A DNA stretch of 64,000 nucleotides from an uncultured virus (IMG/VR IMGVR_UViG_3300028888_000068) (IMGVR_UViG_3300028888_000068); one strand, 5' to 3'; positions 14,950 through 64,000 are shown, counted from the stretch's first letter. Notes: a model not told the origin generated them from the sequence alone. Numbers and translations: made by a program.

Positions 14950-14951
14950 AA

Positions 14952-15421: not shown

Positions 15422-15457
15422 GCTGCCGAGGAGGGCAGGCGCCGGTGTGGCGCTACG

Positions 15458-15664: not shown

Positions 15665-15736
15665 TATTTTTGAGTATTGGTTTTGCTTCGAAAGAATTTT
15701 ATACCCTTTCTTGTGTCGAAATTTGGTATAATTAAT

Positions 15737-15807: not shown

Positions 15808-15834
15808 TATCATATATAAGGCATTTAGGTCTTC

Positions 15835-48097: not shown

Positions 48098-48214
48098 CCC
48101 TTCTTTTTTATTCCCTTCTATATCCCTTCAAAACCTTATATATGTAGAAGATACCTAAAGACTAAGACTGACGCTTTGGGTATTTTATGTCTTTAGTCAG
48201 TCAAGAATTAAGAT

Positions 48215-48400
48215 ATGGAATTTTTTGCTATATTGGCATGGCTTGGGAAAGTCATTGCCATGTTCGCCGCATTGGCGATCCTGGTCCTGGTCATTATGGC
48301 CTGGGCTGGGAATACAATGAAAAAGTCCCGGGAAGCCCGGGAAAAGTCTAACTCCGTCCTGCAGAAGTGTGGGCGCGGTGACATCCGGATTCAGAAATGA
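48215..48400 (+). CDS. Small membrane protein
   Basis: Hydrophobic N-terminal half; motif at 48134-48144. Confidence 0.7.
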   Translation: MEFFAILAWLGKVIAMFAALAILVLVIMAWAGNTMKKSREAREKSNSVLQKCGRGDIRIQK

Positions 48401-48503
48401 TCCGGATTTTTATTTCCCCCAAAGCCTTATATATGTAGAGGAGCTAAATTTTATTATATAGCCAGGCCTCTACATTTTGTAAACTACTAAAACCAAACCT
48501 ACT

Positions 48504-48638
48504 ATGAGCAACATAGAAACTGTTGTATTGGTGATTACTGGGTCTCTTGGACTTATGTACATCACCTACATATCTGGGCTCATTGTAATCTCTTTATTCA
48601 AGGGATTTTTGACGAGCCTGAAGAAATGGGGAAAGTGA
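48504..48638 (+). CDS. 44-aa membrane peptide (not in ORF track)
   Basis: MSNIETVVLVITGSLGLMYITYISGLIVISLFKGFLTSLKKWGK; motif at 48425-48435. Confidence 0.65.
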   Translation: MSNIETVVLVITGSLGLMYITYISGLIVISLFKGFLTSLKKWGK

Positions 48639-48670
48639 AAACTTTCTTCATTTTTTTATCCTCTCAAATT

Positions 48671-48845
48671 CTTATATATGACTTTTTAACGTCTTGTTTG
48701 ACATCGGTGCTAGAGAATATCTGGGGAGGTATCTCTAGCACTATTTTCTTTGTCTCCTTCTAATTCCTTATAAATGAATTTAGCTTATTCATATTTGGTA
48801 TTAGGAAGGGTAGTCCTCGGTTGCAAAACTGGGGGCTACTTTATT
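48671..48845 (+). ncRNA. Two tandem mini transcription units
   Basis: Motifs at 48671-80 and 48766-76; hairpins at 48707-48741 and 48810-48839. Confidence 0.5.
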
Positions 48846-48887
48846 GATAATGATAAAAAAGAAGGAAAATAGCTTCCTTCTTTATTT

Positions 48888-49055
48888 TCATAGCGGGACA
48901 ATTATATATTCTAATTCATTGAGGTCTCCGATATCAAAAGCTTCGGATTCTGCTTTTCTTTTTGCTCGTTCGGCCTCTCTTTTAGAATTATAAGTTCCTA
49001 CCAACATGCCGTTTTCTAAAAGTCCCCACGGCTCATACTTTTCTTCTTTTGCCAT
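48888..49055 (-). CDS. Small hypothetical protein
   Basis: Start trimmed to MAKEEK; similar to 13540..13734. Confidence 0.6.
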   Translation of the reverse strand: MAKEEKYEPWGLLENGMLVGTYNSKREAERAKRKAESEAFDIGDLNELEYIIVPL

Positions 49056-49665
49056 CTTCTTTATCTTTTCTAAAACTCGTCTTCTTGTCGAACCCATGAC
49101 TCTCGGCCTTTTCTTCATCGGTTCTTGAATCTGTTATTACCGGCTCTTTCATTTTCAGGAGATAGTTATAAATTCCGTTCCATATTTCTTGAGCCGAGAG
49201 AAATCCGATGAGAGGGAGGCCGACCAGGATAGGGTTCTTCACATAATCCCAAGAATCCCATCGTGAACCAGTCTCTCGATAAGCTAAGACGAGAGGAGCC
49301 TGTGGAGATATTAGTTCTTTATCAACTCCATAATAAGGATCGGATACCCACCAAGGCATCCAACTCTTTTTCTTCTGATTCTTTAATTCTCCATCCATAT
49401 CGTATTCCTCAACGGTGAATTTTATATTATCACCGTCATAATCTCTATTGACAAGGAACCTCTTTTTATAATCTTCGCCTGCCTGAATATATAAGTAGTA
49501 ATTTCGGCTAGGCTCATTTTTAAGAGAGTTGAATGGCCTATGGTATCCGTCAAGCTCTTTTCTTGCTACAACGGAATTTCTTCTATCATATACTACATAC
49601 TCATCTATGCCATTTATTCCGGCAAGATAATCGTAAAAATCTTTTTTGTTATCTATTATTTTCAT
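49033..49665 (-). CDS. Conserved phage hypothetical protein
   Basis: KDFYDY...HGFDKKTSFR; starts 2 nt after the motif at 49668-49678. Confidence 0.75.
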   Translation of the reverse strand: MKIIDNKKDFYDYLAGINGIDEYVVYDRRNSVVARKELDGYHRPFNSLKNEPSRNYYLYIQAGEDYKKRFLVNRDYDGDNIKFTVEEYDMDGELKNQKKKSWMPWWVSDPYYGVDKELISPQAPLVLAYRETGSRWDSWDYVKNPILVGLPLIGFLSAQEIWNGIYNYLLKMKEPVITDSRTDEEKAESHGFDKKTSFRKDKEDGKRRKV

Positions 49666-49686
49666 ATCATCAATAAGGCTTTAATC

Positions 49687-49980
49687 CCTTATATATAAGT
49701 TTCATATAATGATAGGTTTTAAGTCCGGCTATTGTGATAATACCCGGGCTTTTTTATTTATACCGCCCAGGAAGCCTTAATTCCTTATATATGTAGGTTT
49801 AGGTTTTAGTACACAACGGGCCGACAAACTATTAAAAAGATCTGATTTATGTCGGCCCTTAATTATTAACTAAAACCTAGGAAAACTATTTTTTTCGTCC
49901 TATTAAATCCTTATATATGAAATTTTCATGTAGTTACATTTGCCGGAGTCCAGTTGTTGCGAAACACCTGGGCTTTTATT
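49687..49980 (+). ncRNA. Three tandem mini transcription units
   Basis: Motifs at 49687, 49783 and 49909; hairpins at 49721-51, 49800-79 and 49947-74, each followed by a U-rich tract. Confidence 0.5.
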
Positions 49981-50001
49981 TGTCCCTTTAAATTCTTATA
50001 T

Positions 50002-50244
50002 ATGAAAATGACAAATATTGAAAAAAGAACTTTAAAAAGAAATCGAAGAGTACGAAAAAAGTATTTTAAGATTTTTTATAAAGACGTAAAAAGAGCACTA
50101 GCAACAGATTATCCAAAAACTGAAAATGGAGACTTATTTAAAAGTCTAGAGATACTTGCAGATAACCCGGTGCTACTGTTCAAAGCGGACATGGAAGAGA
50201 AGCATCATGTTGCAGAGGTAGTTTTGGTAGATTCATTAAGTTGA
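50002..50244 (+). CDS. Small basic hypothetical protein
   Basis: Start trimmed to the motif at 49995-50004. Confidence 0.6.
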   Translation: MKMTNIEKRTLKRNRRVRKKYFKIFYKDVKRALATDYPKTENGDLFKSLEILADNPVLLFKADMEEKHHVAEVVLVDSLS

Positions 50245-50367
50245 AAAATCCAGAGACCTGTGTAAAATATAAAGTCAATCAAGCAGTTGCAGAATGGATT
50301 GACAGCTGTGATGACATGGCAAAACAAAATACAGTAAGTTTAACACTTTATTTAAATAGCATTTAAT

Positions 50368-50901
50368 ATGGATCCAACTGAAGCTACTGTAAATCAGTCT
50401 AAAACAGAAAACAAGTCTGACTGGTCTTTCCTGAAAGTACTTGTGGACAGAAATGAGCCGAAAGTTCATTTTGGCTCTCCTAAATTTACCCAATATTCTT
50501 ACGTCGACAAAACAGACGGAAGAAAAAGAATCGTGGTAAAATGTGAAATGGAGTCTCAGCTAGTCCTTCCTGAGGGTTTTTTCAGGGATGATGAAATGGG
50601 AACAGAAGAGTTCATTCATTATCCTTCGGTAAAAGTCATCAAGACTACTGGTAAGGCAATCTGCGACGAAAGAGACGAAGAAAATTTCAGCCTAACTCTT
50701 GGCATGAGAGTTTCTCGTGTTCGTGCAGAAAAGAGGGCGTTCGAAAGACATGCCAAAGCCCTTGAAGCTAGAATGACTAAACTTCTTGATTTCTATCACA
50801 ACTCTCTAGACAGTTTCATGGCAAAAGCTGACAAAGTCCTAGCTGATGAGATTATCTGGGAAGAGAAGAAGAAAGAAGAAACGCCGTCAGAAGAGAAGTA
50901 A
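50368..50901 (+). CDS. Phage hypothetical protein
   Basis: GKAIC...D...F...LG...RA pattern common in phage proteins. Confidence 0.7.
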   Translation: MDPTEATVNQSKTENKSDWSFLKVLVDRNEPKVHFGSPKFTQYSYVDKTDGRKRIVVKCEMESQLVLPEGFFRDDEMGTEEFIHYPSVKVIKTTGKAICDERDEENFSLTLGMRVSRVRAEKRAFERHAKALEARMTKLLDFYHNSLDSFMAKADKVLADEIIWEEKKKEETPSEEK

Positions 50902-50945
50902 AACTTGGGGCTAGGTAAAAATTCCTAGCCTCTAATTTATAAAAT

Positions 50946-51698
50946 ATGAGAAAATTACTTCTTATTATAGACCCTCAATATGATTTTGTAAATCCTTACG
51001 GGTCTTTATTCGTTAATGGGGCTCCAGAAGCTATAAAGAATATTGCATCTTATATAAGAAAGCATGGAGAAGATCTTTCCGGAATAGCAGTAACTATGGA
51101 TACTCACCATAAGTATCATATTGCTAATCCTGGATATTGGAGCCCTAGACCAAAGCCATTTACCAGAATAACTGCGGAAGACGTCGCTTCTGGAAAATTT
51201 AGGCCAATTAAGGAAGAGTATAGGGAGACTACTAAAAGTTATTTAGCCTCTATTGACGGAATAACAATCTGGCCAGAACATTGTCTGGAAGGTTCTCCTG
51301 GTTGGGCAATGCCTCGTGAGCTTTCTGAGGCTATTCATGAGTGGGAGCTTCAAACAGAGCCGGTAGAGTTTGCAGAATACTATCAAAAAGGAACAAATCC
51401 TACTTTTGAAGCATTCTCATTATTCACAGAGGCTCCAGGAATGGAAGGTTACCGGCCCTATGCAGACATCAATGTATTCTCAGACTATGATAAAATTGTA
51501 GTTTGCGGTTTTGCAAAAGATGTCTGTGTAGCAAATACAGTTATGGATATGCTTAGAGATGGAGAAGAATATTACAGAGATAAGCTAATGTTCTTTGAAG
51601 ATGGAATGGCTAGCATTGATCCAGAAAGTCCTATGAACCAGGTATTTCAGGATGCTATTCTGCAGTTTGGTGCTGAATTAGAAGTTGATATAAATTAA
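50946..51698 (+). CDS. pncA: Nicotinamidase (isochorismatase family)
   Basis: IDPQYDF, D-T-H, WPEHC, KG and GFAKDVCV. Confidence 0.85.
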   Translation: MRKLLLIIDPQYDFVNPYGSLFVNGAPEAIKNIASYIRKHGEDLSGIAVTMDTHHKYHIANPGYWSPRPKPFTRITAEDVASGKFRPIKEEYRETTKSYLASIDGITIWPEHCLEGSPGWAMPRELSEAIHEWELQTEPVEFAEYYQKGTNPTFEAFSLFTEAPGMEGYRPYADINVFSDYDKIVVCGFAKDVCVANTVMDMLRDGEEYYRDKLMFFEDGMASIDPESPMNQVFQDAILQFGAELEVDIN

Positions 51699-51759
51699 AA
51701 ACAATAAAGGCAGAAAAATAAACTGCCTTTCTCTTTCCTCGCTTTTCCTTATATATGTT

Positions 51760-52197
51760 ATGTATATACTAGTAAATAAGAAACCAGTTGATGTATTTAA
51801 AATAGATGCCGTATCTTCAATTATTCCGTTAGATATGAAAAGGTATAGAGCAGCGGTTAATTATCTTGAAGATCCTACTTTTGAAGGATTTCGTAAGAGG
51901 AAGATACAAGCAGATAAAAAGAAATCACAAAATATAGTAGAAAACATTATTAAATATATGATTAATGATGTTAGACACGAAGACTATAAAACGATGACAG
52001 GATATATTCCTACTAAATTTTCCGATGATTATGAGAAAAAGAATCTTGGATACTACTTTTGTATATCGCCGGGAAAGGATGAAGACTATATTTGTTCTAG
52101 AATATACAAAACAGAAGCAGAAGCAGAGAAAAACTTAAAAGATTTTCTTGAGCTTATAAATACCGTTAGAAGCATAGTATCTGAAATTACTATTTAG
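51760..52197 (+). CDS. Hypothetical protein
   Basis: Starts 2 nt after the motif at 51747-51757. Confidence 0.7.
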   Translation: MYILVNKKPVDVFKIDAVSSIIPLDMKRYRAAVNYLEDPTFEGFRKRKIQADKKKSQNIVENIIKYMINDVRHEDYKTMTGYIPTKFSDDYEKKNLGYYFCISPGKDEDYICSRIYKTEAEAEKNLKDFLELINTVRSIVSEITI

Positions 52198-52260
52198 AGA
52201 GGACCTTAGAATCCTCTCTTTAAATCCTTATATATGAAAAATTATTAATTAAACACAAAA

Positions 52261-53448
52261 ATGGAAGGAATTATTAAATCAAAATTAGAAAATGACCTTT
52301 ACAAATTTTCAATGAGTTATTTCTATATGATGAAATATCCCAAAGCACAAGGGATTTTTGCATTCCATGATAGAAATAATTCCACATATACGAAGGAATT
52401 TGTGGAAAGGCTTAAGAAGGAGATACGGCTGTTTGCTGAACTAAGAATGACCAACGAAGAGTTCGAGTGGGCAGTTAAGAATATCCCGTATATCCCTAGA
52501 TTTTTCTGGGAATGGTATCGTGGCTTCCAATTTGACCCTTCGGCTGTATCTATAAGCCTGGATTCCGAAAACCATCTTAAAATTTCGGCCTCTGGATATC
52601 TTTATCAGATTACTTTTTGGGAGGTTCCTATTCTCGCTATGGTGTCTGAGATTAAGAATGAACTTGAAGGAAATATCGAAAAGCTTGATGTTAACAAGTT
52701 TACTGATGCTCTAAAGAGAAAAATCAAACTTTCTAATGACAATGGAATGAAATTTTCTCTCTTTGGAATGCGGCGGAGATTCAGTGGCCCACTGGAGGCT
52801 CAGGTAACGGATATTTGCAGTAGAGAGGCAAAATATTGTGTTGGAACATCCAACGTCTGGTTTGCTTATGTCTATCATATGAGACCAACTGGAACGCTCG
52901 CCCATGAACTTATTATGGCAGCAGGAAGTTGGTATGGTTACAGGATGGCTAACTGGAGAGTGATGGAAGATTGGTCTAGTGTCTTTGGAATTGACCTTGG
53001 AACTATGCTGATCGATACCTTTACCTGTGATGTATTCTTCTGGAATTTCACAAGGGAACATGCTCATCTATTCTCTTCGTTGAGAATCGATTCTGGTGAT
53101 GAGTATGAAATTGCTGATAAAGCTATTAAATCATATCAGAAACTTGGAATTGATCCAACTCAGAAAACTCTAATATTCTCAAACTCTCTTAATTTCCCTA
53201 AGGCACTTGCTATTCAGCAGTATTGTGGAGATAGAATCAAGACTAGCTTTGGAATTGGAGGAAATCTTACAGCGGATGTTCCCGGAGTTAAGCCTAGCAA
53301 TATCGTTATGAAGCTATCCCGCTGTAGATTGACAGAAGATATGGATTGGCGAGATTGCATTAAAATCTCAGACGATCTAGGCAAACACATGGGAAATGAG
53401 ATTGAGCTAGAGAGAGCCTTAATTGAGCTAGAAATAAAGAATCCTTAA
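52261..53448 (+). CDS. pncB: Nicotinate phosphoribosyltransferase
   Basis: NDLYKFSM, FGMRRRFS, GTSN, GTLAHE, RIDSGD, FGIG and KISDDLGK. Confidence 0.92.
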   Translation: MEGIIKSKLENDLYKFSMSYFYMMKYPKAQGIFAFHDRNNSTYTKEFVERLKKEIRLFAELRMTNEEFEWAVKNIPYIPRFFWEWYRGFQFDPSAVSISLDSENHLKISASGYLYQITFWEVPILAMVSEIKNELEGNIEKLDVNKFTDALKRKIKLSNDNGMKFSLFGMRRRFSGPLEAQVTDICSREAKYCVGTSNVWFAYVYHMRPTGTLAHELIMAAGSWYGYRMANWRVMEDWSSVFGIDLGTMLIDTFTCDVFFWNFTREHAHLFSSLRIDSGDEYEIADKAIKSYQKLGIDPTQKTLIFSNSLNFPKALAIQQYCGDRIKTSFGIGGNLTADVPGVKPSNIVMKLSRCRLTEDMDWRDCIKISDDLGKHMGNEIELERALIELEIKNP

Positions 53449-53462
53449 TACAAATTCATCGT

Positions 53463-53494
53463 GAGCTAAGAACTAAAATTCTTAGCTCTTATTT
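53463..53494 (+). terminator. Terminator hairpin
   Basis: GAGCTAAGAA/TTCTTAGCTC stem followed by a T-rich tract. Confidence 0.7.
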
Positions 53495-53524
53495 CCTTAT
53501 ACATGAATTAAACATATAAAAACA

Positions 53525-54220
53525 ATGGGAAAATTTAAAGATTTTTTGAAAAATGCTGTTTTCGAAGAAGAAAACGAGAAAGAGAAAACAGTTAAACAAC
53601 AAGCCACTCCAGAACCTGAAAAGCAGACTAATTTTCGTTTAGTCGCGAGGGAGGAGAAGGCTAAGATTACAGAAACATCTTCTACTATAGAAGATGAAGA
53701 TGAAGGGGAAGTTAGCGAAGCTATTCTTGACATGCTAGAGAACGATCTAGAGCAAGAAAATATCCCCGGACCTGATTATCTTGAACTGAAAGCAGCTGCG
53801 GAAGATGAAGAAAGCATAAAGACGGAGCCTGATGAAAGAAAAAGATATCGCCAGGCTTTCTCTAATATGAAAAGATTTTTCCCAGATGCAGGTGTCACTG
53901 AAGATCGTATTTTTGACTCTGTAGAGCACTACAAAAAGGTTCTGCAGGCCAAAGAAGCAGATGCGAAAGAAGAGCTTGAAAGAAAAATTCAGACTGAAGT
54001 TATCTCATTGCGTGACGGAATTAGCGCCGAGGAGAAAGAGCTTCAGCGTAGAGAAGAACAGATTCGTCTCGAAAGGCAAAAGCTGGAAGAGAGAAAAGCT
54101 ACTATCGCAGAAAGAGAAAAGTCCCTTACTAAGAAAGGAAAAGACTTTATTAAGACTGCAGCATTTATGCAGCAAGCTCTTGACAGTGACCTCAAGAAAA
54201 TCAAAGAATATCTTAAATAA
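53525..54220 (+). CDS. Coiled-coil protein, first gene of the ABC/OmpA operon
   Basis: NIPGPDYLE motif; promoter motif at 53495-53505. Confidence 0.75.
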   Translation: MGKFKDFLKNAVFEEENEKEKTVKQQATPEPEKQTNFRLVAREEKAKITETSSTIEDEDEGEVSEAILDMLENDLEQENIPGPDYLELKAAAEDEESIKTEPDERKRYRQAFSNMKRFFPDAGVTEDRIFDSVEHYKKVLQAKEADAKEELERKIQTEVISLRDGISAEEKELQRREEQIRLERQKLEERKATIAEREKSLTKKGKDFIKTAAFMQQALDSDLKKIKEYLK

Positions 54221-54229
54221 TAAGATACT

Positions 54230-55261
54230 ATGGACAACAACAACGGTTTAGTTCCGATGGGATCTGAATTCTCATCGAAGAAGTCACCCTGGGAAAAACC
54301 CGGAGGGAAACTTGGAATGGTTGTAGCAGGATTGGGGATTGCAGGGGCAGGATATCTCCTCTATCTCCTACTGCCAATCATGATCTCACTCGCGTCAAAT
54401 GTTCTTTACCTGATTCTGATGCTTTTTGGTATTGGAATCCTAGGATACATCTTGACGTCTAAGAAGTTCTGGAATACGTTCAAAGTTGCGTATTTCATCA
54501 TCATGCGAAGAATCACTGGGTTCTTCATCAAGATTGACCCTGTTGCTATTCTCGAAGATTATATTAGAGATCTTCAGAAAAGAATCAGAGAAGTTTCGGA
54601 CAACATCAATCAAGTCCGTGGACTCATTAAGAAGAACGAAAGAAAACTTAATGAAGTAACGGATAAAAGAAACAACACTATTCTTGAGATTAAGCACTAT
54701 CGTCAAAGCGGTCAGAATGCTTTTGCTCAACAGAAAGAAGGCCTCTTAGTACTTTATGAAAAATCTGTTAAGGATAGAACAGCAAGACTTGAGACCTCCA
54801 AAAAGTGGTTAGAAGCGTTGACCAAGCTTCAGCAATATGCTACGTTCTCTGTCACTATCAATGAAGAAAAAGTTAAACTCTTTAAAGATGAGTACGAAGA
54901 ACTTAAGGCACAGGGAAAAGCCTTTAGGTCTATCAAATCTGCTCTCAATGGTGATCCTGATATGATGGAAAACTTTGAGACCGCTGTAGAAATCATGGAG
55001 AATGAAATCTCTATGAATCTCGGTGAAATCGAAGATATGATCGATGAGACTAACGGTCTTCTCGGTCAGGCTGACATGGAAAATGCAGTTATTTCCGACA
55101 AGGCCACGGCTATCCTTCAGAAATATGATAATCAGGAAGGAATTTTCAATGAAAATCGCTGGAAAGGTCTTCCTGAGCCTGAAGCTCAGCCAATTCAAAG
55201 ACTCTCTAATGAAGAGCTTTCTAAGAGAGATGCTAAAGGTAGAAAAAGTTATTTTGACTAA
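54230..55261 (+). CDS. Two-TM coiled-coil protein (PspA-like)
   Basis: Two TM helices, then IDPVAILEDYIRDL and a long coiled coil. Confidence 0.7.
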   Translation: MDNNNGLVPMGSEFSSKKSPWEKPGGKLGMVVAGLGIAGAGYLLYLLLPIMISLASNVLYLILMLFGIGILGYILTSKKFWNTFKVAYFIIMRRITGFFIKIDPVAILEDYIRDLQKRIREVSDNINQVRGLIKKNERKLNEVTDKRNNTILEIKHYRQSGQNAFAQQKEGLLVLYEKSVKDRTARLETSKKWLEALTKLQQYATFSVTINEEKVKLFKDEYEELKAQGKAFRSIKSALNGDPDMMENFETAVEIMENEISMNLGEIEDMIDETNGLLGQADMENAVISDKATAILQKYDNQEGIFNENRWKGLPEPEAQPIQRLSNEELSKRDAKGRKSYFD

Positions 55262-55283
55262 ACTCACATAAACAAAAACAATT

Positions 55284-56870
55284 ATGGCAAAAGTAAAACC
55301 CTGGGTGAAGATTGTAGGAATTGCACTCGTCGCCGCTGGCGTTGGACTTGGTCTTAACGCCGCTGGAGTCTTCAAGGGCTCTGAAAACAAAACCACTACT
55401 GAAAAAAGCAGTGGAGAGAAGAAACCCTCTGGAATTTTTGGAGGGAAAACTAAGAAAATTGACTACATAACTGTAGGAACCAACACCTATGCTGGCTTCT
55501 TGCCATTTATGTATCTCAACAACGGCCTGGAACCGAACGAAGACTGTATTCTCTATAAGGAGTATGGCCTTAAGATGAAAGTTGTCATTCAAGACGACTT
55601 CCAGGCTGGACGTATGGCTTTCAAAAATGGAAACATTGACGTTATCTACTGTACTGTCGATGCTATTCCCGTCGAAATGGGCGAAGGTTCTGAAATGACG
55701 GACGCTAAGGTCTTCAACCTCAGTAACTGGAGCCGCGGAGCAGATGCTATCGTTGTCGGAAAAAATATTAAGAAGGTAGTAGACCTTATCGGCAAAGTAG
55801 TAGCCTGCTCTGAAGGAACGGCCAGCCATACATTACTTCTCAATACCCTTGAGACCTCTGGCATTGGTTACGATAGAGTTAATCTCAAATCCTCTATCGA
55901 ACCTGACAAAGTTAATATTAAGGTAGTAGGCTCTGGGCTCGATGCTGCTGCTGCATTTAAGGCAGGTGCTTGTGATGCTGCTGTAGTGTTTTCACCGGAC
56001 GACCAGGACCTTGTAAATTCTGGACTCGGTCATGTCCTAGTCTCTACCAAGCAAGCCTCTAGTATTATCTGTGATGGACTTATTGCAAAACAGGATTTCA
56101 TTGACGCAAATCATGAAAATCTTGAAAAACTTATCGGCGCTCTCTTGTCTGCTAATGTCAAGATGAATACTGATATGTCCGCCGTCCGTCAGGCAGCACG
56201 ATATTTTGCCAAAGCTTATGGAACAGACGAAGATTTTGCCATCGAGGGTTCTAAAAACATTTACTACGTAACCCTTGAGGATGAAGCCAATTTCTTCGGA
56301 CTTAGGTCAGACTATACTGGAATGAAGGGAGACGAGCTTTATTCCAAGATGGCTAGAACTTATAGCGGTCTTGGTCTAGTTCGGAATCCCATTTCCTGGA
56401 GAAAAGCTTCTGATGATTCAGTTATTGAGGCTCTTCTCGGAAAGCCAGACTTAACTTCCGGAAATCAGGCTGCAGAAACTGGACCTGAATTTGAAGAAAG
56501 AGCCGGCCTAGAAACCGCTCCCGTATTCTCAAACAAGTCAGTTACCATTGAATTTCCGACAGGTTCTGCTACGCTCGATAACAATGGAAAAACAATTATC
56601 GATCGAGAGTTTAAGACTCTGGTTAAGCAGTTCTCTGGAGCTCGGTTTAGAGTTGAGGGAAATACTGACAACACTGGCTCGGCTGCAACTAATGAGGCAC
56701 TGTCTAAGAGGCGTGCTCAGGCTGTTGTAGATTACCTAGTCAGAGAATGCGGTGCTGATAGAAATCAGTTTACTGTTGTAGGCAATGGTTCCAAGCATGC
56801 AATTGATGCTGGTTCCAAAGGCTCAGATAGTAGATACAGAACTACTGATCTTTTACTGATCAGTGAATAA
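55284..56870 (+). CDS. ABC substrate-binding protein (SsuA/NMT1-like) fused to an OmpA-like peptidoglycan-binding domain
   Basis: WSRGADAIV; C-terminal FPTGSA...EGNTD...NEALSKRRAQAV. Confidence 0.85.
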   Translation: MAKVKPWVKIVGIALVAAGVGLGLNAAGVFKGSENKTTTEKSSGEKKPSGIFGGKTKKIDYITVGTNTYAGFLPFMYLNNGLEPNEDCILYKEYGLKMKVVIQDDFQAGRMAFKNGNIDVIYCTVDAIPVEMGEGSEMTDAKVFNLSNWSRGADAIVVGKNIKKVVDLIGKVVACSEGTASHTLLLNTLETSGIGYDRVNLKSSIEPDKVNIKVVGSGLDAAAAFKAGACDAAVVFSPDDQDLVNSGLGHVLVSTKQASSIICDGLIAKQDFIDANHENLEKLIGALLSANVKMNTDMSAVRQAARYFAKAYGTDEDFAIEGSKNIYYVTLEDEANFFGLRSDYTGMKGDELYSKMARTYSGLGLVRNPISWRKASDDSVIEALLGKPDLTSGNQAAETGPEFEERAGLETAPVFSNKSVTIEFPTGSATLDNNGKTIIDREFKTLVKQFSGARFRVEGNTDNTGSAATNEALSKRRAQAVVDYLVRECGADRNQFTVVGNGSKHAIDAGSKGSDSRYRTTDLLLISE

Positions 56871-56935
56871 ACCGTCTTGTTGTTTTGTTGGGGTGGGCAG
56901 TTGAAATATATTGCTCACCCTTTATCTTAAACAAT

Positions 56936-57202
56936 ATGACTAAGAAAGCTGATTGGAAACTAAAAAGAGAAGCTCAAGCAGACATTCTTCTTCCGTGGGC
57001 ACAAAACAAGATTAAGAAACTTGGATATAACGCCAAAATAGAAGGATATTCCGTTGTCTTTAGGGTTGGAGTCTGTAAAGTAAGATTCTATCCCTTTACT
57101 GGTGGAATTCAGTGGCAAGGAACTCCAGGGATAAAAGAAAGAGGAATGAGCAATCTTATAAAACTCATCAATGAACATGAAAAAACTAAAGGGACTGTTT
57201 AA
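56936..57202 (+). CDS. Hypothetical protein inside the ABC operon
   Basis: Start trimmed to MTKK; FYPFTG motif. Confidence 0.6.
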   Translation: MTKKADWKLKREAQADILLPWAQNKIKKLGYNAKIEGYSVVFRVGVCKVRFYPFTGGIQWQGTPGIKERGMSNLIKLINEHEKTKGTV

Positions 57203-58025
57203 GTTTGGAGGAAGCAGTGATTTTGGAAAGCTAACGCCGTTAGTCTCGGTGATAGGAATTCTTTTCCTTATTGGACTTTGGTGGTTAGAAGCTAAGTTTG
57301 AAGTTATACCAACTAAGATTCTTCCTGGACCATTCGATGTTTTAGGCTCTTATCCTGGTCTTATCACGGAGAATAGCCTCTTCGGAAATCTATGGTTCAC
57401 GGTTAAACTGAATCTCTTGGCATACTTCTGGGCAATATTAATATCTCTTGTAGTCGGATTTGCACTATCACTGATTCCTTTCCTTAACCTAGCGTTGGGA
57501 AAATATCTTAGTGCCCTTCGCTATACCCCACTGCCGAGTATCTCTGGTGTCTTCATAGCCGTTGCAGGACTCACATTTGGAATGAAAGTGAGTTTCCTTG
57601 CGGCTGGCTTGATAATCTTTATACTTCCGGCAGTAGCAGCGAAGGTAAACGAGCTACAGAATCCAACCAATGACTCCAATATCTACTTAGAGACTATGGA
57701 AACTCTGGGTGGAACTAGTTGGCAGAAGTTTAGGTATGTCTATTTCCCATATGTAACCTCCACAGTCAGTCAGGAAATTATAACCCTAACTGGTGTATCA
57801 TATTCCTACTGTGTTATCGCCGAACTTCTTTATAAATCCGGCGAAGGAATTAACGGCGTGGGAAGTTTAATCAATACCCTAATCAGACAATCTCATATGC
57901 CTGAAGCCTGGGCATGTTTGTTCCTGATTATTGCCGTCGGTGTACTTCAAGATTTTCTATTTAAGAAGCTTGATATTGCCCTATTCCCCTTTAAGTATAA
58001 CAAGAAAAGCATCTGGAGGAAATAA
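57171..58025 (+). CDS. ABC transporter permease (SsuC/TauC-like)
   Basis: About 6 TM helices; EAA-like ETMETLGGTSWQKFRYVYFP. Confidence 0.88.
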   Translation: MNMKKLKGLFKFGGSSDFGKLTPLVSVIGILFLIGLWWLEAKFEVIPTKILPGPFDVLGSYPGLITENSLFGNLWFTVKLNLLAYFWAILISLVVGFALSLIPFLNLALGKYLSALRYTPLPSISGVFIAVAGLTFGMKVSFLAAGLIIFILPAVAAKVNELQNPTNDSNIYLETMETLGGTSWQKFRYVYFPYVTSTVSQEIITLTGVSYSYCVIAELLYKSGEGINGVGSLINTLIRQSHMPEAWACLFLIIAVGVLQDFLFKKLDIALFPFKYNKKSIWRK

Positions 58026-58027
58026 AG

Positions 58028-58999
58028 ATGGGAATATTTAAGAAAGAGCTTGAAGAAAAGAGAAGACAGGAGTTAGAGGCTGAACTTGAGAAAGAAGAAG
58101 TCCTCGATAAAACAAGTGTCAAAGTAGAAACTGTGCCTCAGGAAACATTTGACAAACCGGAGGAAGTAGAAAAAGAAGTTCTTGAAAATGTTAATGTGTT
58201 CGACCTTAAGAATATTAATGTTTCTTTCAAGGTAGGACAAGAAGTCAAACATCTTTTCCAGGACTTTAACCTAGAAATCCCTGATATTCCTGGAAAATCT
58301 CAGGTGATTGGGTTTGCTGGTCCGTCGGGTTGTGGAAAGTCTCAGCTCCTTAGAATTATCTCAGGGCTGTCTAAACCACAATCTGGAGAGGTCCTAGTCT
58401 ATGGCCAACCCTATACAGACAAGACCCATTTTCCGCTGATTTTCCAAAGATACAGCAACTATGATTGGATGACCGTCTATGATAATCTTGCCCTTCCCCT
58501 TAAAATGAGAGGTATGAAGGACGGCGATATAAAGGCGGCCGTAGAAGAGATGATTGATATCTTAGGACTTCGTGGACATGAGCAGAAGTGGGGATATCCG
58601 GGAGGTGGACTTTCTGGTGGTCAATGTCAGAGAATTTCCATCGGCCGTAGTATTCTCGCCGCTGCAGGAAATAAAGACTCTAGGGGAAATCAAATCCTTC
58701 TCCTAGACGAAGCCACTAGTGCTCTTGACATCGTATCTAAGCACGAAGTTCATGACACCCTAATGAATATCTTGTATGGGACCGAACTAGACCCGACTAT
58801 GATAATCGTTAGTCATGATCCGTCTGAACTAGCTTTCCTGTGTGATAAAGTCTTCGTTCTTGCTCCCTGGCCCTGTCGTATTCATAAAGTTGTGGACATC
58901 GACTATGGGGTGGGAAAGAGAACGAGAGAAATCAAAGAAAGTCAGAAATGTCAGGACTATGCAAAGGAAATTGAGCAGTCTATCCGAGAAATTGAATAG
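58028..58999 (+). CDS. ABC transporter ATP-binding protein (SsuB/TauB-like)
   Basis: GPSGCGKS, LSGGQCQR, LLLDEATSALD and VSHD. Confidence 0.93.
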   Translation: MGIFKKELEEKRRQELEAELEKEEVLDKTSVKVETVPQETFDKPEEVEKEVLENVNVFDLKNINVSFKVGQEVKHLFQDFNLEIPDIPGKSQVIGFAGPSGCGKSQLLRIISGLSKPQSGEVLVYGQPYTDKTHFPLIFQRYSNYDWMTVYDNLALPLKMRGMKDGDIKAAVEEMIDILGLRGHEQKWGYPGGGLSGGQCQRISIGRSILAAAGNKDSRGNQILLLDEATSALDIVSKHEVHDTLMNILYGTELDPTMIIVSHDPSELAFLCDKVFVLAPWPCRIHKVVDIDYGVGKRTREIKESQKCQDYAKEIEQSIREIE

Positions 59000-59008
59000 A
59001 CCCCAAAT

Positions 59009-59087
59009 CCTTATAAGTGACTGTTTTTAAATCATCGCTGTTAGTTGAGTTAGGCCAGAGTGTAATAGCTTTGGCCTTTCTCTTTTT
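59009..59087 (+). ncRNA. Mini transcription unit
   Basis: Motif variant at 59009-19; hairpin at 59052-77; U-tract. Confidence 0.45.
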
Positions 59088-59095
59088 CCTTATAT

Positions 59096-59395
59096 ATGAT
59101 GGGATTCTGTTATATTAGTAAAGGTATATTTAAGTATAGAAAAACTTTAGGTCTATCTATATATCTACCAGGGCTTATTTGGTTAGATGAAGATAAAGTT
59201 AGTTCAGTACGGGTAAGTTGGAAAGAGAAATTGCTCTTTGTTGAGTGGAAAGATAGTTATGATATTGGTCTCTTATTTGAGAGTTCTTATGACTTAAATG
59301 ATTGTAGACTTTCTGGACCAAAATCAGTATTTGAATTATTTAGTGATGTAAGTTTAGACTACCTGGCTTCGGTTATGTCAGAGCTTCCTTTCTAA
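59096..59395 (+). CDS. Hypothetical protein
   Basis: Starts at the motif 59088-59098. Confidence 0.6.
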   Translation: MMGFCYISKGIFKYRKTLGLSIYLPGLIWLDEDKVSSVRVSWKEKLLFVEWKDSYDIGLLFESSYDLNDCRLSGPKSVFELFSDVSLDYLASVMSELPF

Positions 59396-59543
59396 TGACC
59401 GATAAATTCCTTATATGTGAACATATTAAATAACAAAAAAATAGACTCGATAGTATACACCAGGTTGTCGTGTATATTTATCGGTCTGGGATATGGACAG
59501 TCCGGGTGAGAGCTCCGACTGTTTTTTTGTCTTTTCCTTATAT

Positions 59544-59804
59544 ATGATGGAAAAGAAAGTTAGAGTTAGATTTAATTATAACTTATACGAAACCATTAAA
59601 GATTGTATACATGTAGAAGTATACGACTGGTCCTGTAGAGAAATTATAATTTTATCTAAAGAACAGGACCTAATCCGAGCGAAATTTAAACCTGTTGCTT
59701 GGACTGAAAGACCAGAGGGAGAATATTTACATACCCCTGGAATGCTATTTATGTATATTCCAGAAGAACTTCTAGAAATATATAGTGATCTTGAAAGAAT
59801 ATAG
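59544..59804 (+). CDS. Paralogue-family protein
   Basis: VRFNYNLY...MYIPEELLEIYSDL; start trimmed to the motif. Confidence 0.7.
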   Translation: MMEKKVRVRFNYNLYETIKDCIHVEVYDWSCREIIILSKEQDLIRAKFKPVAWTERPEGEYLHTPGMLFMYIPEELLEIYSDLERI

Positions 59805-59807
59805 TCA

Positions 59808-60059
59808 ATGAGGCTTAGATTTGCGCTAGTAGAATTTGATAGATTTATTTTTGATAATTTTAAAGATGAAATTCAAGTATATATCAAAAAAGAAGGCACA
59901 GCTTTTTTAGATGTTGAAAAAATTGGAACAAAATATATAGGACGATATCTTTCGGAAGATGGAGTATGGGAAGTTCGGACCCTTTCCAAAGAAGAGTTGT
60001 ATTTGGGTATTCCTATATATTTATCAGAGACTTTTACTAACCTAGTTCCCTATGCTTAA
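59808..60059 (+). CDS. Paralogue-family protein
   Basis: VEFDRFIF...GIPIYLSETFTNL. Confidence 0.65.
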   Translation: MRLRFALVEFDRFIFDNFKDEIQVYIKKEGTAFLDVEKIGTKYIGRYLSEDGVWEVRTLSKEELYLGIPIYLSETFTNLVPYA

Positions 60060-60321
60060 AACAACCCCAGACCCAGGAACAGCAAGGGTAAAGTTTAATT
60101 ATAATCTATATAAAATATTTAAATCAGAAGTTCGTGTTCTTTATTATAAACGAGCTTGGGATGCGTACTGGTGCTACGATATAATTCCATTAGTTAAGAG
60201 TGGAATAACATACAGGGCATATGCAAATAGAGACAATTATAAGTTGGTTATTGATACCAATCTTTATATGTATGTTCCAGATTATTTCTTAGAGCTTTTT
60301 GAAGACCTAGAAGTGACATGA
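60052..60321 (+). CDS. Paralogue-family protein
   Basis: VKFNYNLY...MYVPDYFLELFEDL. Confidence 0.7.
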   Translation: MLKTTPDPGTARVKFNYNLYKIFKSEVRVLYYKRAWDAYWCYDIIPLVKSGITYRAYANRDNYKLVIDTNLYMYVPDYFLELFEDLEVT

Positions 60322-60620
60322 TAGTAGAAGGAATTGCAGTAGAGTTTGATAAGCATATATTCGATACATTTTACACAGAAGATCATCAATGGCCACCTGA
60401 AGTAGAACTATATTCTAAGGATGAAGGAAGACCATTAAGCTGTATCAAAAGAATAGGCTCAAGTTATTTGGCAGTAGAATTAAGATGGGAAAGCGACACT
60501 ATACATACACGACAGCTAGAAGAAAAAGATATTATGATGGTAGTCCCTAGATATCTTATTGATATATTTGATAACTTGAAAATAATTGAAGGTCTTCCCA
60601 TAACTAACTACAGTGTTTAA
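60318..60620 (+). CDS. Paralogue-family protein
   Basis: VEFDKHIF...VVPRYLIDIFDNL. Confidence 0.7.
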   Translation: MIVEGIAVEFDKHIFDTFYTEDHQWPPEVELYSKDEGRPLSCIKRIGSSYLAVELRWESDTIHTRQLEEKDIMMVVPRYLIDIFDNLKIIEGLPITNYSV

Positions 60621-60672
60621 TATATTTTATTTTGCGCCTGAGAAGCCTTCAAATTCTTATATATGTTAAATT

Positions 60673-60744
60673 GCTGGGTTCGTATAACGGTTAGTACCCG
60701 AGATTTTCATTCTCGTAACAGGAGTTCGATTCTCCTACCCAGTA
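60673..60744 (+). tRNA. tRNA-Glu(TTC)
   Basis: Cloverleaf; CGAGA-TTTTCAT-TCTCG; motif at 60656-60665 upstream. Confidence 0.92.
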
Positions 60745-60750
60745 CTACAT

Positions 60751-60823
60751 CGCGGCGTAGAGCAGTTGGTAGCTTGCAAGGCCCATAACCTTGAGGTCGT
60801 CGGTTCAAGTCCGTCCGCCGCTA
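60751..60823 (+). tRNA. tRNA-Met(CAT), initiator-like
   Basis: CAAGG-CCCATAA-CCTTG; C1:T72 mismatch; TTCAA T-loop. Confidence 0.9.
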
Positions 60824-60827
60824 CTAT

Positions 60828-60860
60828 GAAATAGGATTAAAGTCCTATTTCTTTTTTTTT
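60828..60860 (+). terminator. Rho-independent terminator
   Basis: GAAATAGGA/TCCTATTTC stem plus T9. Confidence 0.8.
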
Positions 60861-61107
60861 CTGAAATATATGTTTTTGCCGCTCTTAGGGAGGTAAAATC
60901 TTATATATGAAGTTAAAGATATTATTTATTGAAGCGTAATGCAAATCTATAAATGATATCTTTCTTTTCAAATAGATGTTATCATGTTTTGATAGGGAGG
61001 GGAAGTAAAAGAATAGCTACCTTTGAAAACCCTCCTGATATTAAAATATGAATTGGTATAATATTAAAAACTAGGAAGCTACTAGGATAAAAGAGGCAAT
61101 TAAAACA

Positions 61108-62382
61108 ATGATAACAATTGATGATCTCCCAGAAGAAGGAGGAAATTATGCAAAAACCAAAAAAGAGTGGGAAGAAGTAGATCACCTGTATATTCATTAT
61201 TTTTATAAGATAACCAACAATATTAATAATAAATATTATTACGGTATTCATTCTATCCTAAAAGAAGATCCAAAATCAAATGACCTAGTAAATGATGGCT
61301 ATTGGGGTTCTGGTACTGCTATTCATGAGGCTGAAATAAAATATGGGCTTGAAAATTTTACTAAAACCGTTGAAGCAATTTTTTCTACACGAGCCGAAGT
61401 TAGAATTTATGAAGCAGAAATAGTAACGCAGGAATTAGTAGATGATAGAATGTGTTATAATATGGTTCTAGGAGGATGCGAGAGTCCTATATGGCAAGGA
61501 GGATGGATATTAGTTAATTATAGAGATGAAAGTCTAAGAAAAGAAAAAATGTTCAGTATTCCAACAGAAGAATATCAAAGTAACAAAGACAAATATATAA
61601 CCTCTATGTCGGGGCTTATTTCTGTTAATTATCGAGATCCAGAAAAACGACTTCCTAAATTTTTTACAATAAGTTCTGAAGAATATTACAAAAATAAAGA
61701 CCTATATATAACTTCGTTTTCTGATAAAGTAGCCTATAAGAATAAAGAAAACTGGGAAGACGTTAGGTGGCTTAGCTCTGATGATCCATTAGTATTATCT
61801 GGTCAGTTTATAGGGATAACTAAGGGTCTTAAGCAATCTCAAGAAACTATAAACAAAAAGATAGGAGAGAAAAATGGATCTTATGGTAGTTTTTGGGTTA
61901 CTAATGGAAAAGAAAATAAGAAAATAAGCAATCAAGATATTCCTGAGGGTTGGTGGAAGGGGAGAATTATTGATGAGACAAAAATAAAATACTGTTATAT
62001 AAATATAGAAACCGGCGAACATAAATATTTCTTAAAAACTGAGAATCCTGGACATCCTTGGTTTAAAGATTTTATGGTAGACAAAAATTTAGAAGTAATA
62101 ACCATAACCAGATTAGAGGGATATCTAAAGGATGGAAAAACAAAAAAGGAGTTATCAGAAATTTTTGGTATATGTATAAAGTCGGTGGCCAAACTAGTAA
62201 AATATTATATAGGTCTTGGGAAACTTGATAATAAATATTATATACTTAAAAATTCAGTTCGTCATCAGGCTAGTACTAAGTATATGTTTATTAGAGATAA
62301 AAGTACTGGAAAGGTTCGCAGGGTGTTATCTGAACAAGCCAAAAAGTTCCTAAATAATACAGATGCATTTGAAAAGCTTTAA
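61108..62382 (+). mobile_element. Free-standing GIY-YIG (Seg-like) homing endonuclease gene
   Basis: YFYKITNNINNKYYYGIHS...YWGSG...E...YN; NUMOD-like GEKNGSYG and WVTNG; located inside the tRNA cluster. Confidence 0.85.
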
Positions 62383-62410
62383 ATTCCTTATATTTGAAAA
62401 TCATCTTCGT

Positions 62411-62750
62411 GGCTCGATGGTGAAACTGGTAGAATTGTCTGCCTCTCTATAAAGAAATTTATAGAAGATAGGTCCCCTAAACGGTGAAGACTAAACAGAA
62501 ATGCATGTTAATACCGTGGCAAATCCTGAAAAGGATAGTCCGTAGAGAATATACAGGGACAGCCTAAGGGAAATCTAAGGCTAAGATTGATTCCAGACCA
62601 CAAACAAATACGATAGTAAGAGTTGGAACATCTAACATAATACAAAATTTCATGTATTTGGTAGCGAAAACTATAGTGGTCCAAGACACGAGGGACTTAA
62701 AATCCCTTAGCCCGAAGGGGCTGTGGTGGGTTCGATTCCCCCTCGAGCTA
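62411..62750 (+). tRNA. tRNA-Leu(TAA), intron-split (exons 62411-62430 and 62684-62750)
   Basis: Joined exons give GGCTCGATGGTGAAACTGGT|AGACACGAGGGACTTAAAATCCCT...TCGAGCTA with a long variable arm. Confidence 0.88.
62431..62683 (+). mobile_element. Group I intron (no ORF)
   Basis: P1 GGTAGA/TCTGCC with U.G, P3 GTCCC/GGGAC, P4 ACGGT/ACCGT, P7 GAGAAT/ATTCC, P8 AGCCT/AGGCT, P9.0-like ACCAC/GTGGT. Confidence 0.85.
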
Positions 62751-62767
62751 CAATTCAACACAAAATC

Positions 62768-62851
62768 GGACCGGTGGCGAAATTGGCGAGACGCGCTAGT
62801 CTTAGGAACTAGTACATTGATACACTGTGGGTTCAAATCCCACCCGGTCTA
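62768..62851 (+). tRNA. tRNA-Leu(TAG)
   Basis: GGACCGG/CCGGTCT; CTAGT-CTTAGGA-ACTAG; long variable arm. Confidence 0.9.
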
Positions 62852-62884
62852 CAGACCAACCAACTTAACAAAAAACTATTCATG

Positions 62885-62921
62885 CTGCATACCTTTGGAG
62901 GGGTATGCAGCTGTTTTTTTT
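62885..62921 (+). terminator. Rho-independent terminator
   Basis: GCTGCATACC/GGTATGCAGC stem plus a T-run. Confidence 0.8.
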
Positions 62922-62958
62922 ATTCTTCTTAAATTCTTATTAATAAAGAAAAAAAATT

Positions 62959-63189
62959 ATGCCACGAATTTATAGTAAAGATGTAAAACTGACTAGAACA
63001 CAAAAAAGACGTCTACGATATGTTCTTTGTGATTTTATTTGGGGGGATGACCCTACACTAATTAATATAGAACATGATGCAGACAGTGTTAAGCTCACTA
63101 TTCAGATGTCTAATGCAGACTGGGTTAAAACTATGGGAGAGTCGTGGCCCAAAGAAGATATGAGCATTGAAGTAAAACGCCGTAAGTGA
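62959..63189 (+). CDS. Hypothetical protein
   Basis: ORF following a motif variant at ~62936. Confidence 0.6.
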   Translation: MPRIYSKDVKLTRTQKRRLRYVLCDFIWGDDPTLINIEHDADSVKLTIQMSNADWVKTMGESWPKEDMSIEVKRRK

Positions 63190-63539
63190 TGAGAGTATTT
63201 TGGAATAAAGAGTTTTACGAAAAATACAGTAATGTCTTTAATATTCAAGTCTGGGCTATAAAAGAAATTCCAGAGAGCAACGGATATTATTATAATTACT
63301 ATAACTATGGTGATACTACAACTAGGTCTTATATTGTACTCTTAGACCTCTCTTTTAGTTGGTCAGAATCAGACGGAAAACTTACAGCGCTTAACTGGGA
63401 ATCTGGAATTTATGAACACTTTCCAGTAAATACGGTATATATGGAGCTTCCTGATGAACTTAAAGACATATTTCCAGATCTTGAACCGTGGATAGACTAT
63501 AACTTTTCCATGACATTTTCTTCAACTTCAGATATATAG
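63186..63539 (+). CDS. Paralogue-family protein
   Basis: VFWNKEFY...MELPDELKDIFPDL. Confidence 0.7.
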   Translation: MMRVFWNKEFYEKYSNVFNIQVWAIKEIPESNGYYYNYYNYGDTTTRSYIVLLDLSFSWSESDGKLTALNWESGIYEHFPVNTVYMELPDELKDIFPDLEPWIDYNFSMTFSSTSDI

Positions 63540-63541
63540 TT

Positions 63542-63832
63542 GTGGAAAGAATCAAGTATATATATTGGAACCATGACTTATATAAAACATATAGAGGACT
63601 GTTTGATATTCAAGTATTTTATAAGGATGGTCACTACGCTTTGTTGAGAATACCATCTAATCTCAAACAATCCTATAATGAAAAATATTTTAAGGTAGTG
63701 GATCCTAAGGGAATTAATAGAATATATTTGAGTTCTGAAATAATTCTTGGGGTTCCTGAAGAATTATTTAATCTATTTTCTGATCTTAAGCTTATTGATT
63801 TTTCAATATTGATAATAAAAAACAGTATATGA
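63542..63832 (+). CDS. Paralogue-family protein
   Basis: IYWNHDLY...GVPEELFNLFSDL. Confidence 0.7.
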   Translation: MERIKYIYWNHDLYKTYRGLFDIQVFYKDGHYALLRIPSNLKQSYNEKYFKVVDPKGINRIYLSSEIILGVPEELFNLFSDLKLIDFSILIIKNSI

Positions 63833-64000
63833 GCAAGATAATTGAATTTGACCCTGGACTTCGGAAGGATATTGAATCAGGTAAATACGAAGTACAGACT
63901 AGAAACGGAAGAAAAGTAAATATCATTGACTGGGAATGTAAATGCTATGATAGAAATGATATTGTAGCTAAAGTTTCAAGTGGAAATGGAAAATCTGAGA
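63829..64000 (+). CDS. Hypothetical protein (3' partial)
   Basis: MSKIIEFD...QTRNGRKVNIIDW; runs off the window. Confidence 0.6.
   Translation, partial: MSKIIEFDPGLRKDIESGKYEVQTRNGRKVNIIDWECKCYDRNDIVAKVSSGNGKSE

Follow-up and report, generated by a model that had tools for sequence, protein, structure and literature searches.

The stretch of DNA analysed here (64,000 nucleotides from the uncultured virus IMGVR_UViG_3300028888_000068 of IMG/VR; below, the window) contains six tightly packed open reading frames (ORFs) on the + strand, at 53525-58999. They encode a complete and intact ATP-binding cassette (ABC) system dependent on a substrate-binding protein (SBP), the SBP being fused to an OmpA-like domain, together with a membrane-anchored protein of the PspA type. 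The best reading of these sequences is that the genes constitute a bacterial envelope operon which was probably captured by a Lak-type megaphage. With modest confidence, and judging from the domain content, we take it for a module that would combine envelope maintenance and solute uptake at the host inner membrane during infection, stabilisation of the membrane being its most plausible role. The original prediction, made from the sequence alone, had named six ORFs, and the ORF call returned all of them on the + strand at the coordinates given beforehand; its description of a complete ABC system with an OmpA-fused SBP and a PspA-like protein in a phage genome was borne out. The conserved module, however, comprises five of the six genes and does not include the small ORF, whose eight homologues (59-100% identity) belong exclusively to close relatives and which gave no tblastn match in 127 loci. 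The features of the locus are the following.

53463..53488, + strand: terminator-like hairpin that ends the upstream pncB unit (10-pair stem, then a T-rich tail), directly 5' of the motif
53493..53506, + strand: motif TTCCTTATA(CATGA), lineage-specific putative operon promoter, distinguished by its excess and position
53525..54220, + strand: cc1, acidic coiled-coil protein of 231 residues
54230..55261, + strand: PspA/Vipp1/ESCRT-III-like protein with a two-transmembrane anchor, 343 residues
55284..56870, + strand: SBP-OmpA, 528 residues, with an N-terminal membrane anchor, an SsuA/TauA-class domain and a C-terminal OmpA-like peptidoglycan-binding domain
56890..56921, + strand: internal hairpin 3' of the SBP-OmpA stop codon (12 pairs, of which 6 are G-C), which might act as an attenuator or affect RNA stability
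56936..57202, + strand: small lineage-specific ORF, 88 residues from the ATG at 56936, with an alternative TTG start at 56885
57171..58025, + strand: TauC/SaoP-like type-I ABC importer permease, 284 residues
58028..58999, + strand: ABC ATPase, 323 residues, all motifs present; about 55 residues at the N-terminus form a charged extension
59052..59077, + strand: terminator-like hairpin that ends the operon; the next motif copy lies at 59086-59094

The SBP-OmpA protein exceeded the Pfam cut-offs for OmpA (PF00691; 60.4 bits, cut-off 27.2), NMT1_2 (36.7, cut-off 24.7) and NMT1 (26.7, cut-off 20.5), and hydropathy indicated one N-terminal transmembrane anchor. The closest solved relatives of the binding domain are TauA (6ssy, E 2.6e-18) and SsuA (2x26, E 3e-16), and by its sequence the protein can be classed as the cognate class-II SBP of the NMT1/SsuA/TauA family. 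The polar residues N79, T124, S150, D154 and D333 do not vary among 18 sequences that are 26-47% identical. The profile of the SBP-OmpA family (alignment A2, which includes the window protein) matched solved OmpA-like domains with E values down to 5.8e-33. An Asp and an Arg of the OmpA-like motif have a role in peptidoglycan binding; the motif GNTDNTGSAATNEALSKRRA occurs at residue 459 of SBP-OmpA, and D462, R477 and R519 of this domain are invariant in 18 of 18 sequences. The fused protein matches phrog_25518 over its full length (E 3e-46), a family listed in PHROGs as of unknown function.

The permease showed weak TauC and SaoP matches and matched phrog_6743. Its score for BPD_transp_1 (16.5 bits) lies below the cut-off of 26.4; it is 42% identical to a permease of Aquimarina which reaches 47.4 and so exceeds that cut-off. 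An EAA-like loop, ETMETLGGTSWQKFRYVYFP, is found at residues ~173-194. The ATPase scored 76.5 bits for ABC_tran (cut-off 25) and retains Walker A (residue 98), the Q-loop (139), LSGGQ (195), Walker B (223), the D-loop (231) and the H-loop (262). Many Lak-type ATPases possess a charged N-terminal extension of ~20-85 residues (58028-58190 in the window) and are 288-355 residues long, compared with 264-275 for most bacterial-type copies. The small ORF matched no family in Pfam, PHROG or NCBIfam; its ATG at 56936 is the likelier start because the hairpin 56890-56921 overlaps the TTG. RNA contigs pass through this hairpin.

The second gene of the operon encodes a protein whose two transmembrane segments form an N-terminal hairpin at residues 26-76 (about 28-78 by hydropathy), as deduced from hydropathy and from an AlphaFold 2 (AF2) model built from a 29-sequence family alignment. 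The model, with a mean predicted local distance difference test (pLDDT) score of 70.3, contains helices at residues 104-159, 163-238, 244-274 and 280-301. When it was compared with the PDB by Foldseek, the top ten entries were Vipp1 throughout, with E values from 7.2e-4 (6zvr, the best) to 2.4e-2, followed at lower rank by PspA 7abk, Snf7, CHMP2A-CHMP3 and CdvB. At the sequence level PspA_IM30 (PF04012) was the commonest Pfam match in the family, reached by 13 of the 29 members at E<=0.01 (best 1.9e-7). The predicted structure can accordingly be read as an ESCRT-III-type helical hairpin core with further helices. Canonical PspA and Vipp1 bind the membrane peripherally through an N-terminal amphipathic helix. 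The N-terminus of the window protein is a two-transmembrane hairpin, not the canonical amphipathic helix, and fits the 'TM+Snf7' class as described in Ravi et al. (2024, mSystems, PMC11237479). The PspA-like proteins end in a disordered tail followed by a short conserved aromatic C-terminal motif (residues ~310-343 in the window, ...SYFD; ...YSDLF in Aquimarina), and the phage copies retain this motif although no AAA+ gene was found near them.

The acidic protein cc1 matched no family in Pfam, PHROG or NCBIfam. Its AF2 model has a mean pLDDT of 81.7, with values >90 across most of residues 60-230. In it a short helix at the N-terminus is followed by a disordered, acidic linker, then by a small helical domain (65-118) and a helix of ~105 residues. 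Foldseek found nothing in the PDB below E 1 for this fold, and the PDB sequence search returned coiled-coil noise. In the wide VIA-align search only generic long coiled coils were obtained (Z <=7.3), which covered residues 140-231, the domain 65-118 being barely tested; the Atlas search gave only clusters of 'hypothetical protein'. The cc1 gene and the PspA-like gene occur together in 40 of the 44 IMG/VR loci and 54 of the 80 genome loci described below, and cc1 would be a cytoplasmic partner of the PspA-like protein.

The identity of the genome was deduced from SBP-OmpA, which is 62-66% identical to proteins of the Prevotella phages Lak-A1, A2, B1-B9 and C1. With a protein of the 735-kb phage LR756501 it shares 39% identity, and with gp249 of Bacillus phage G 27%. 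These identities indicate that the window comes from a relative of the Lak-type megaphages. The genes for cc1, the PspA-like protein, SBP-OmpA, permease and ATPase stand in identical order in Lak-A1 and LR756501. The SBP-OmpA family comprises 168 clusters (50% identity) at E<=1e-30, most of the 150 listed being 500-540 residues long. A locus scan, for which an alignment of six sequences served as query, yielded 44 IMG/VR loci and, in GTDB genomes, confirmed stretches of which the best 80 of 563 were used; the presence of the genes was then scored by tblastn (E<=1e-3, phage and Aquimarina queries). Of the 44 IMG/VR loci 38 have all five genes in order, as do 41 of the 80 genome loci, many of the misses being due to short contigs or cut flanks. 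The module lies inside the Lak-A1/B/C genomes and in many IMG/VR contigs of 200-550 kb. The remark in the original prediction that whole ABC importers are uncommon in phages is therefore misleading for this module, which is widespread in huge phages and already in print.

In a FastTree phylogeny of 127 SBP-OmpA proteins (locus L052, with 428 residues, was omitted as shorter than 450) the window fell into a Lak-type clade of 32 rows, 18 of them viral contigs and 14 contigs filed in metagenome-assembled genomes; the nearest row was L090, at 71% identity. A quick IQ-TREE search, run on 43 selected rows, placed a chromosomal clade (G009 and L015-L017) as sister to 12 Lak-type rows, with a Shimodaira-Hasegawa-like approximate likelihood ratio (SH-aLRT) of 99, and LR756501 next (SH-aLRT 98, long branch). 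The remaining IMG/VR clades were dispersed among Bacteroidota rows, and the label 'viral' needs at least 5-8 changes on these unrooted trees, which give no direction of transfer.

Chromosomal copies of the five genes exist, the clade of G009 being the sister group named above. G009 carries the genes on an 875-kb Bacteroidales chromosomal contig, ~11 kb from the chorismate synthase gene (aroC), between rhomboid-protease and glycosyltransferase genes on one side and a glycosyltransferase-type gene on the other; it shares one GTDB genus with the genome of locus L016. Full-length SBP-OmpA relatives were found in 3 of 35 genomes of this genus, 3 of 170 of the family and 23 of 401 sampled genomes of the order Bacteroidales (~6%). 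A Bacteroidetes small RNA of the FopS family (80.3 bits; 11157-11229 of L128) lies just downstream of the neighbouring glycosyltransferase gene, ~1.8 kb past the end of the chromosomal operon copy in G009 (L128). The five genes also occur in six named Aquimarina strain genomes (L051, L060, L066, L070, L073 and L080), of which L070 (NZ_CP170199) is a complete chromosome, and are followed there by genes for an AAA+ ATPase and a superfamily 1 (SF1) helicase. The Aquimarina AAA+ protein was detected by tblastn in 13 bacterial-type loci; in L070 the AAA+/helicase region spans 11978-16611. This two-domain AAA+ gene follows the operon in Aquimarina and its closest relatives, the SF1 helicase coming next in 8 of the 13 loci, and the helicase beside bacterial-type operons resembles MkoA/MkoC of Mokosh (PADLOC). 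In Neolewinella adjacency is limited to three genes, cc1, the PspA-like gene and SBP-OmpA, which stand among housekeeping genes, and a permease orthologue (43% identity) is located elsewhere in the chromosome.

These patterns bear on the possibility that the operon is an auxiliary set for nutrient acquisition, importing sulfonate, taurine, nitrate or a similar compound to feed replication, with cc1 and the PspA-like protein merely stabilising an over-produced transporter. The intact SBP, permease and ATPase of the NitT/TauT class agree with such a function, and the five invariant polar residues of the SBP fit a conserved ligand site. Against it, the ABC genes are hardly more constant than cc1 and the PspA-like gene (41 versus 40 of the 44 IMG/VR loci, 57 versus 54 of the 80 genome loci); in some chromosomes the latter two remain beside SBP-OmpA while the ABC genes are elsewhere, and simple uptake needs no tether of the SBP to both membrane and wall. 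Nutrient acquisition is an unlikely explanation of the module.

The physical continuity of the locus was examined in public sequencing runs. The stretch was found, in part or whole, in 20 of the 23 listed runs; eight of the 20 are RNA libraries, from three studies. Contigs of four runs (X2, X4, X5 and X10) were aligned to 48000-63000. Run X5, a DNA library from another sample than the possible source, has contigs that extend across 52821-53967 and 58688-59401, and because they span both junctions with the flanking phage genes these junctions are real and not chimeric. An assembly chimera or host contamination could have been suspected from the gene GC content of the operon (0.39-0.44), slightly above that of several neighbours, and from the existence of chromosomal homologues. 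The bridging DNA contigs and the presence of the module in the other phage genomes and contigs refute a chimera; the nearest chromosomal copy, moreover, is only ~55% identical to the window, and the probability of this explanation is close to nil.

The operon is present in the RNA libraries of the three studies as assembled contigs, in which DNA carry-over is possible. In the RNA run X4 a single 5516-nt contig coincides exactly with 53519-59040; it starts 18 nt past the motif and stops 12 nt short of the terminator hairpin. Further contigs of X4 end at gene boundaries or match single upstream units, the one at 52252-53416 corresponding to pncB, and the gaps in the X4 cover by assembled contigs are at 53417-53518 and 59041-59398. 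Run X10, from another study, gave pieces over 53570-58753 and none across 52893-53569. The RNA contigs give a weak hint that the operon is one transcription unit of ~5.5 kb, and the gaps, taken with the DNA contigs that run across them, a weak hint of transcript ends.

The window has 16 copies of the sequence TTCCTTATA where 1.84 would be expected, and none of 100 shuffles reached 16. Copies at 53493-53501 and 59086-59094 lie just 3' of the hairpins 53463-53488 and 59052-59077, respectively, and no copy is found within the operon. Its extended form is TTCCTTATA-nnTGA, frequently situated right after a hairpin and right before a start codon, and the majority of copies are on the strand taken as coding from GC skew, as an overall trend rather than a gene-by-gene check. 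Position, excess and apparent orientation make the copy upstream of cc1 a putative operon promoter. Among 32 related loci inspected, none of the 30 with upstream sequence has TTCCTTATA in the 90 bases 5' of the cc1 start. The Bacteroidetes -7 box has the consensus TAnnTTTG; it is present <=120 nt upstream of cc1 in 13 of 23 Lak-type loci, the window being among the 23, compared with a background of 9.7% of 120-nt windows, and 10 of these 13 also have a -33 TTTG. In the window the lineage motif stands in place of this box. The proposal that the operon is integrated into phage regulation consequently applies to this genome, in which it lies between a phage-specific motif and terminators, and does not extend to the relatives, where a host-type -7 box was seen in the 13 loci.

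The region upstream contains an isochorismatase-family gene (50946-51698), possibly a nicotinamidase, with a partial Pfam match covering residues 182-228 only, and a full-length gene for nicotinate phosphoribosyltransferase, pncB (52261-53448), the two being separated by a 145-residue ORF. By their sequences these two genes (50946-53448) are likely to be a nicotinamide adenine dinucleotide (NAD) salvage pair of the phage. The original prediction had connected the transporter with them as an importer of an NAD or pyrimidine-type precursor, working with pncB and the nicotinamidase-like gene. This connection is suggested by the position of the pair directly upstream, by NAD-salvage genes within 8 kb in 4 of the 44 IMG/VR loci (L091, L099, L100 and L113) and by the Pfam family name of the SBP, NMT1/THI5-like. 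The adjacency is absent in all 80 genome loci, in the closest relative L090 and in Lak-A1, the 735-kb phage and phage G, the last three having neither gene within ~8-9 kb. Furthermore, pncB has its own terminator, the X4 RNA contigs of pncB and of the operon are separate, and among solved structures the SBP is closest to TauA and SsuA. A search for riboswitches was negative, both for 50000-64000 of the window (E<=0.1) and for five related loci (gathering score). The link to NAD or pyrimidine import was therefore abandoned as highly improbable.

A use of the operon in competition, by modification of the envelope for superinfection exclusion or for control of lysis timing, is also very unlikely. 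The products act on the envelope, and envelope proteins of huge phages are discussed in this sense in the part of the preprint bioRxiv 10.64898/2026.10.24.761521 that concerns them. PADLOC returned no meaningful match, only domain-level or coiled-coil ones, and the operon is also present in bacterial chromosomes beside housekeeping genes.

According to the preferred reading of a captured module for envelope maintenance and solute uptake, the products would assemble at the host inner membrane. The ABC genes would supply a type-I importer of the NitT/TauT class (SsuABC/TauABC-like), its SBP fixed N-terminally in the membrane and C-terminally to peptidoglycan. An ESCRT-III-like polymer, arranged by cc1, might shield or reshape the inner membrane in a long infection, while the wall-tethered importer may bring in, or report on, a small anionic or zwitterionic solute. 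Polymer and importer together could maintain the energy supply and the integrity of the infected cell up to lysis.

Several observations weigh against this picture. The mechanism is drawn from domain content. The score of the PspA-like protein for PspA_IM30, 26.7 bits, is below the gathering score of 33.9; the family profile reached PspA 4whe in the PDB at E 0.76 only; and the TM-scores of the model against Vipp1 are modest (0.30-0.43 on the query). The AAA+ ATPase was detected in none of the 44 IMG/VR loci, nor in the 64-kb window or L001-L003 (flanks of <=10 kb searched), and since it was not found with the phage genes the phage version may work differently from the bacterial one. The coiled-coil proteins gp246 and gp247 of Bacillus phage G resembled neither the cc1 and PspA-like proteins nor the profiles of these families to a significant degree (hhalign probabilities 0.3% and 4.4%). 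As regards transcription, the X2 RNA contig 52296-54954 crosses the proposed promoter, the contig starts in X4 and X10 differ (53519 and 53570), and the RNA evidence consists of assembled contigs, without strand or level, to which DNA carry-over may contribute.

The double tether of the SBP, by its N-terminal transmembrane anchor and its C-terminal OmpA-like domain, suggests another possibility, namely that the SBP bridges inner membrane and peptidoglycan as a sensor or mechanical device, in which the ABC engine would read or act on spacing or a wall-derived ligand and trigger ESCRT-III-like resealing or remodelling. The constant coupling of the SBP to a membrane-anchored ESCRT-III-like protein is in line with it, as is a similar set of gene types in Bacillus phage G, whose host is Gram-positive and whose coiled-coil genes are of unshown kinship. 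The permease, on the other hand, retains an importer-type EAA loop and its family is a classic importer class, and this explanation appears distinctly unlikely. The bolder form of the same idea, equally doubtful, would be a wall-to-membrane surveillance and repair machine instead of a nutrient importer, with SBP and ABC proteins sensing spacing or a wall-derived ligand and driving assembly of the membrane-anchored ESCRT-III polymer, which cc1 would organise. If this were true, such a machine would have been acquired repeatedly by huge phages from several lineages of bacterial hosts, to hold the envelope or to build membrane structures in very long infections; cc1 would represent a new class of ESCRT-III adaptor and the aromatic tail of the PspA-like protein a docking motif.

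For the preferred reading as for these alternatives, the interest of the operon lies in its coupling of an ESCRT-III/PspA membrane protein to an SBP-dependent ABC importer, both of them well-studied machines. Its spread over ~6% of sampled Bacteroidales and many unrelated huge phages, with a related cluster in a phage of a Gram-positive host, offers an entry point to two questions: how bacterial relatives of ESCRT-III are recruited, and why the envelope of the host should be a target of investment for giant phages. With Aquimarina and other cultured carriers, experiments on the bacterial version are already possible.

Downstream of the operon the window contains arrays of small ORFs (76-117 residues) at 59493-60620 and 62959-63832, which have a C-terminal pattern in common (e.g. 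...PEELLEIYSDLE, ...PDYFLELFEDLE and ...PEELFNLFSDLK) and are apparently a paralogous family; RNA contigs overlie part of them. A GIY-YIG / SegE-like homing endonuclease gene (61108-62382; phrog_314, E 1.3e-18) sits between a tRNA-Glu/tRNA-Met pair (60673-60824) and a tRNA-Leu (62768-62852). RNA contigs of X2 and X10, from two studies, show joints that skip 46-50 bases at 62607-62658, with several loose ends nearby (62400-62760); no Rfam family or tRNA was called in 62400-62760, and the joints could reflect strain variation or a processed RNA.

The comparison with classical systems showed both similarities and differences. In PspA-PspBC, LiaH-LiaI and Vipp1 a helical protein of the ESCRT-III type works on the inner membrane from its cytoplasmic side. 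The window protein shares a fold match with Vipp1/PspA and differs from the classical PspA/IM30 systems in its fused two-transmembrane hairpin, which replaces a separate anchor or the amphipathic N-terminal helix; no homologue of PspB, PspC, PspF or LiaI was seen among the genes scanned. SsuABC and TauABC are the systems to which the SBP, permease and ATPase show their best matches, both among families and in the PDB. The window SBP, unlike theirs, has a transmembrane anchor and an OmpA-like domain, and the NCBIfam equivalog scores of all three proteins are far below the cut-offs (SsuA_fam 69.3 versus 163.5). In Bacillus phage G, gp243-gp250 include a clustered permease (gp243), ABC ATPase (gp245) and two SBP-OmpA paralogues (gp249 and gp250; 27% and 25% identity), with an acidic coiled-coil protein (gp246) and a transmembrane coiled-coil protein (gp247) in between; the order differs from that of the window, and the host is Gram-positive.

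The closest parallels are in bacteria. Operons that combine PspA or membrane-anchored Snf7 with ABC ATPase, permease and PBPb+OmpA have been described, in the part of Ravi et al. (2024, PMC11237479) devoted to them, together with a proposed link between membrane remodelling and solute transport, which agrees with the reading preferred here. Their domain types are identical to those of the window, where genes for a membrane-anchored ESCRT-III-like protein, PBPb+OmpA, permease and ABC ATPase are co-located; the two-domain AAA+ of that operon type was not found there. In OGG56892.1, the example given there, the order is PspA, PBPb+OmpA, permease, ABC ATPase, TM+Snf7, AAA+, in contrast to cc1, membrane-anchored PspA-like protein, SBP-OmpA, permease, ATPase in the window, where the operon is phage-borne; cc1 is not named as such in that part of the article. 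In huge phages, complete ABC systems (SBP, ATPase and permease) were reported beside 15 of 189 pspA genes, and mitigation of membrane stress was proposed (bioRxiv 10.64898/2026.10.24.761521); the passages of this preprint on the ABC class describe no OmpA fusion, transmembrane anchor, cc1, bacterial counterpart or transcription unit. A search of the literature on Lak phages and megaphages with ABC transporters or PspA gave no further paper on the module in phages. The operon type is already known in bacteria and PspA-adjacent ABC systems are already known in huge phages, and the window is a documented example of them, not a discovery.

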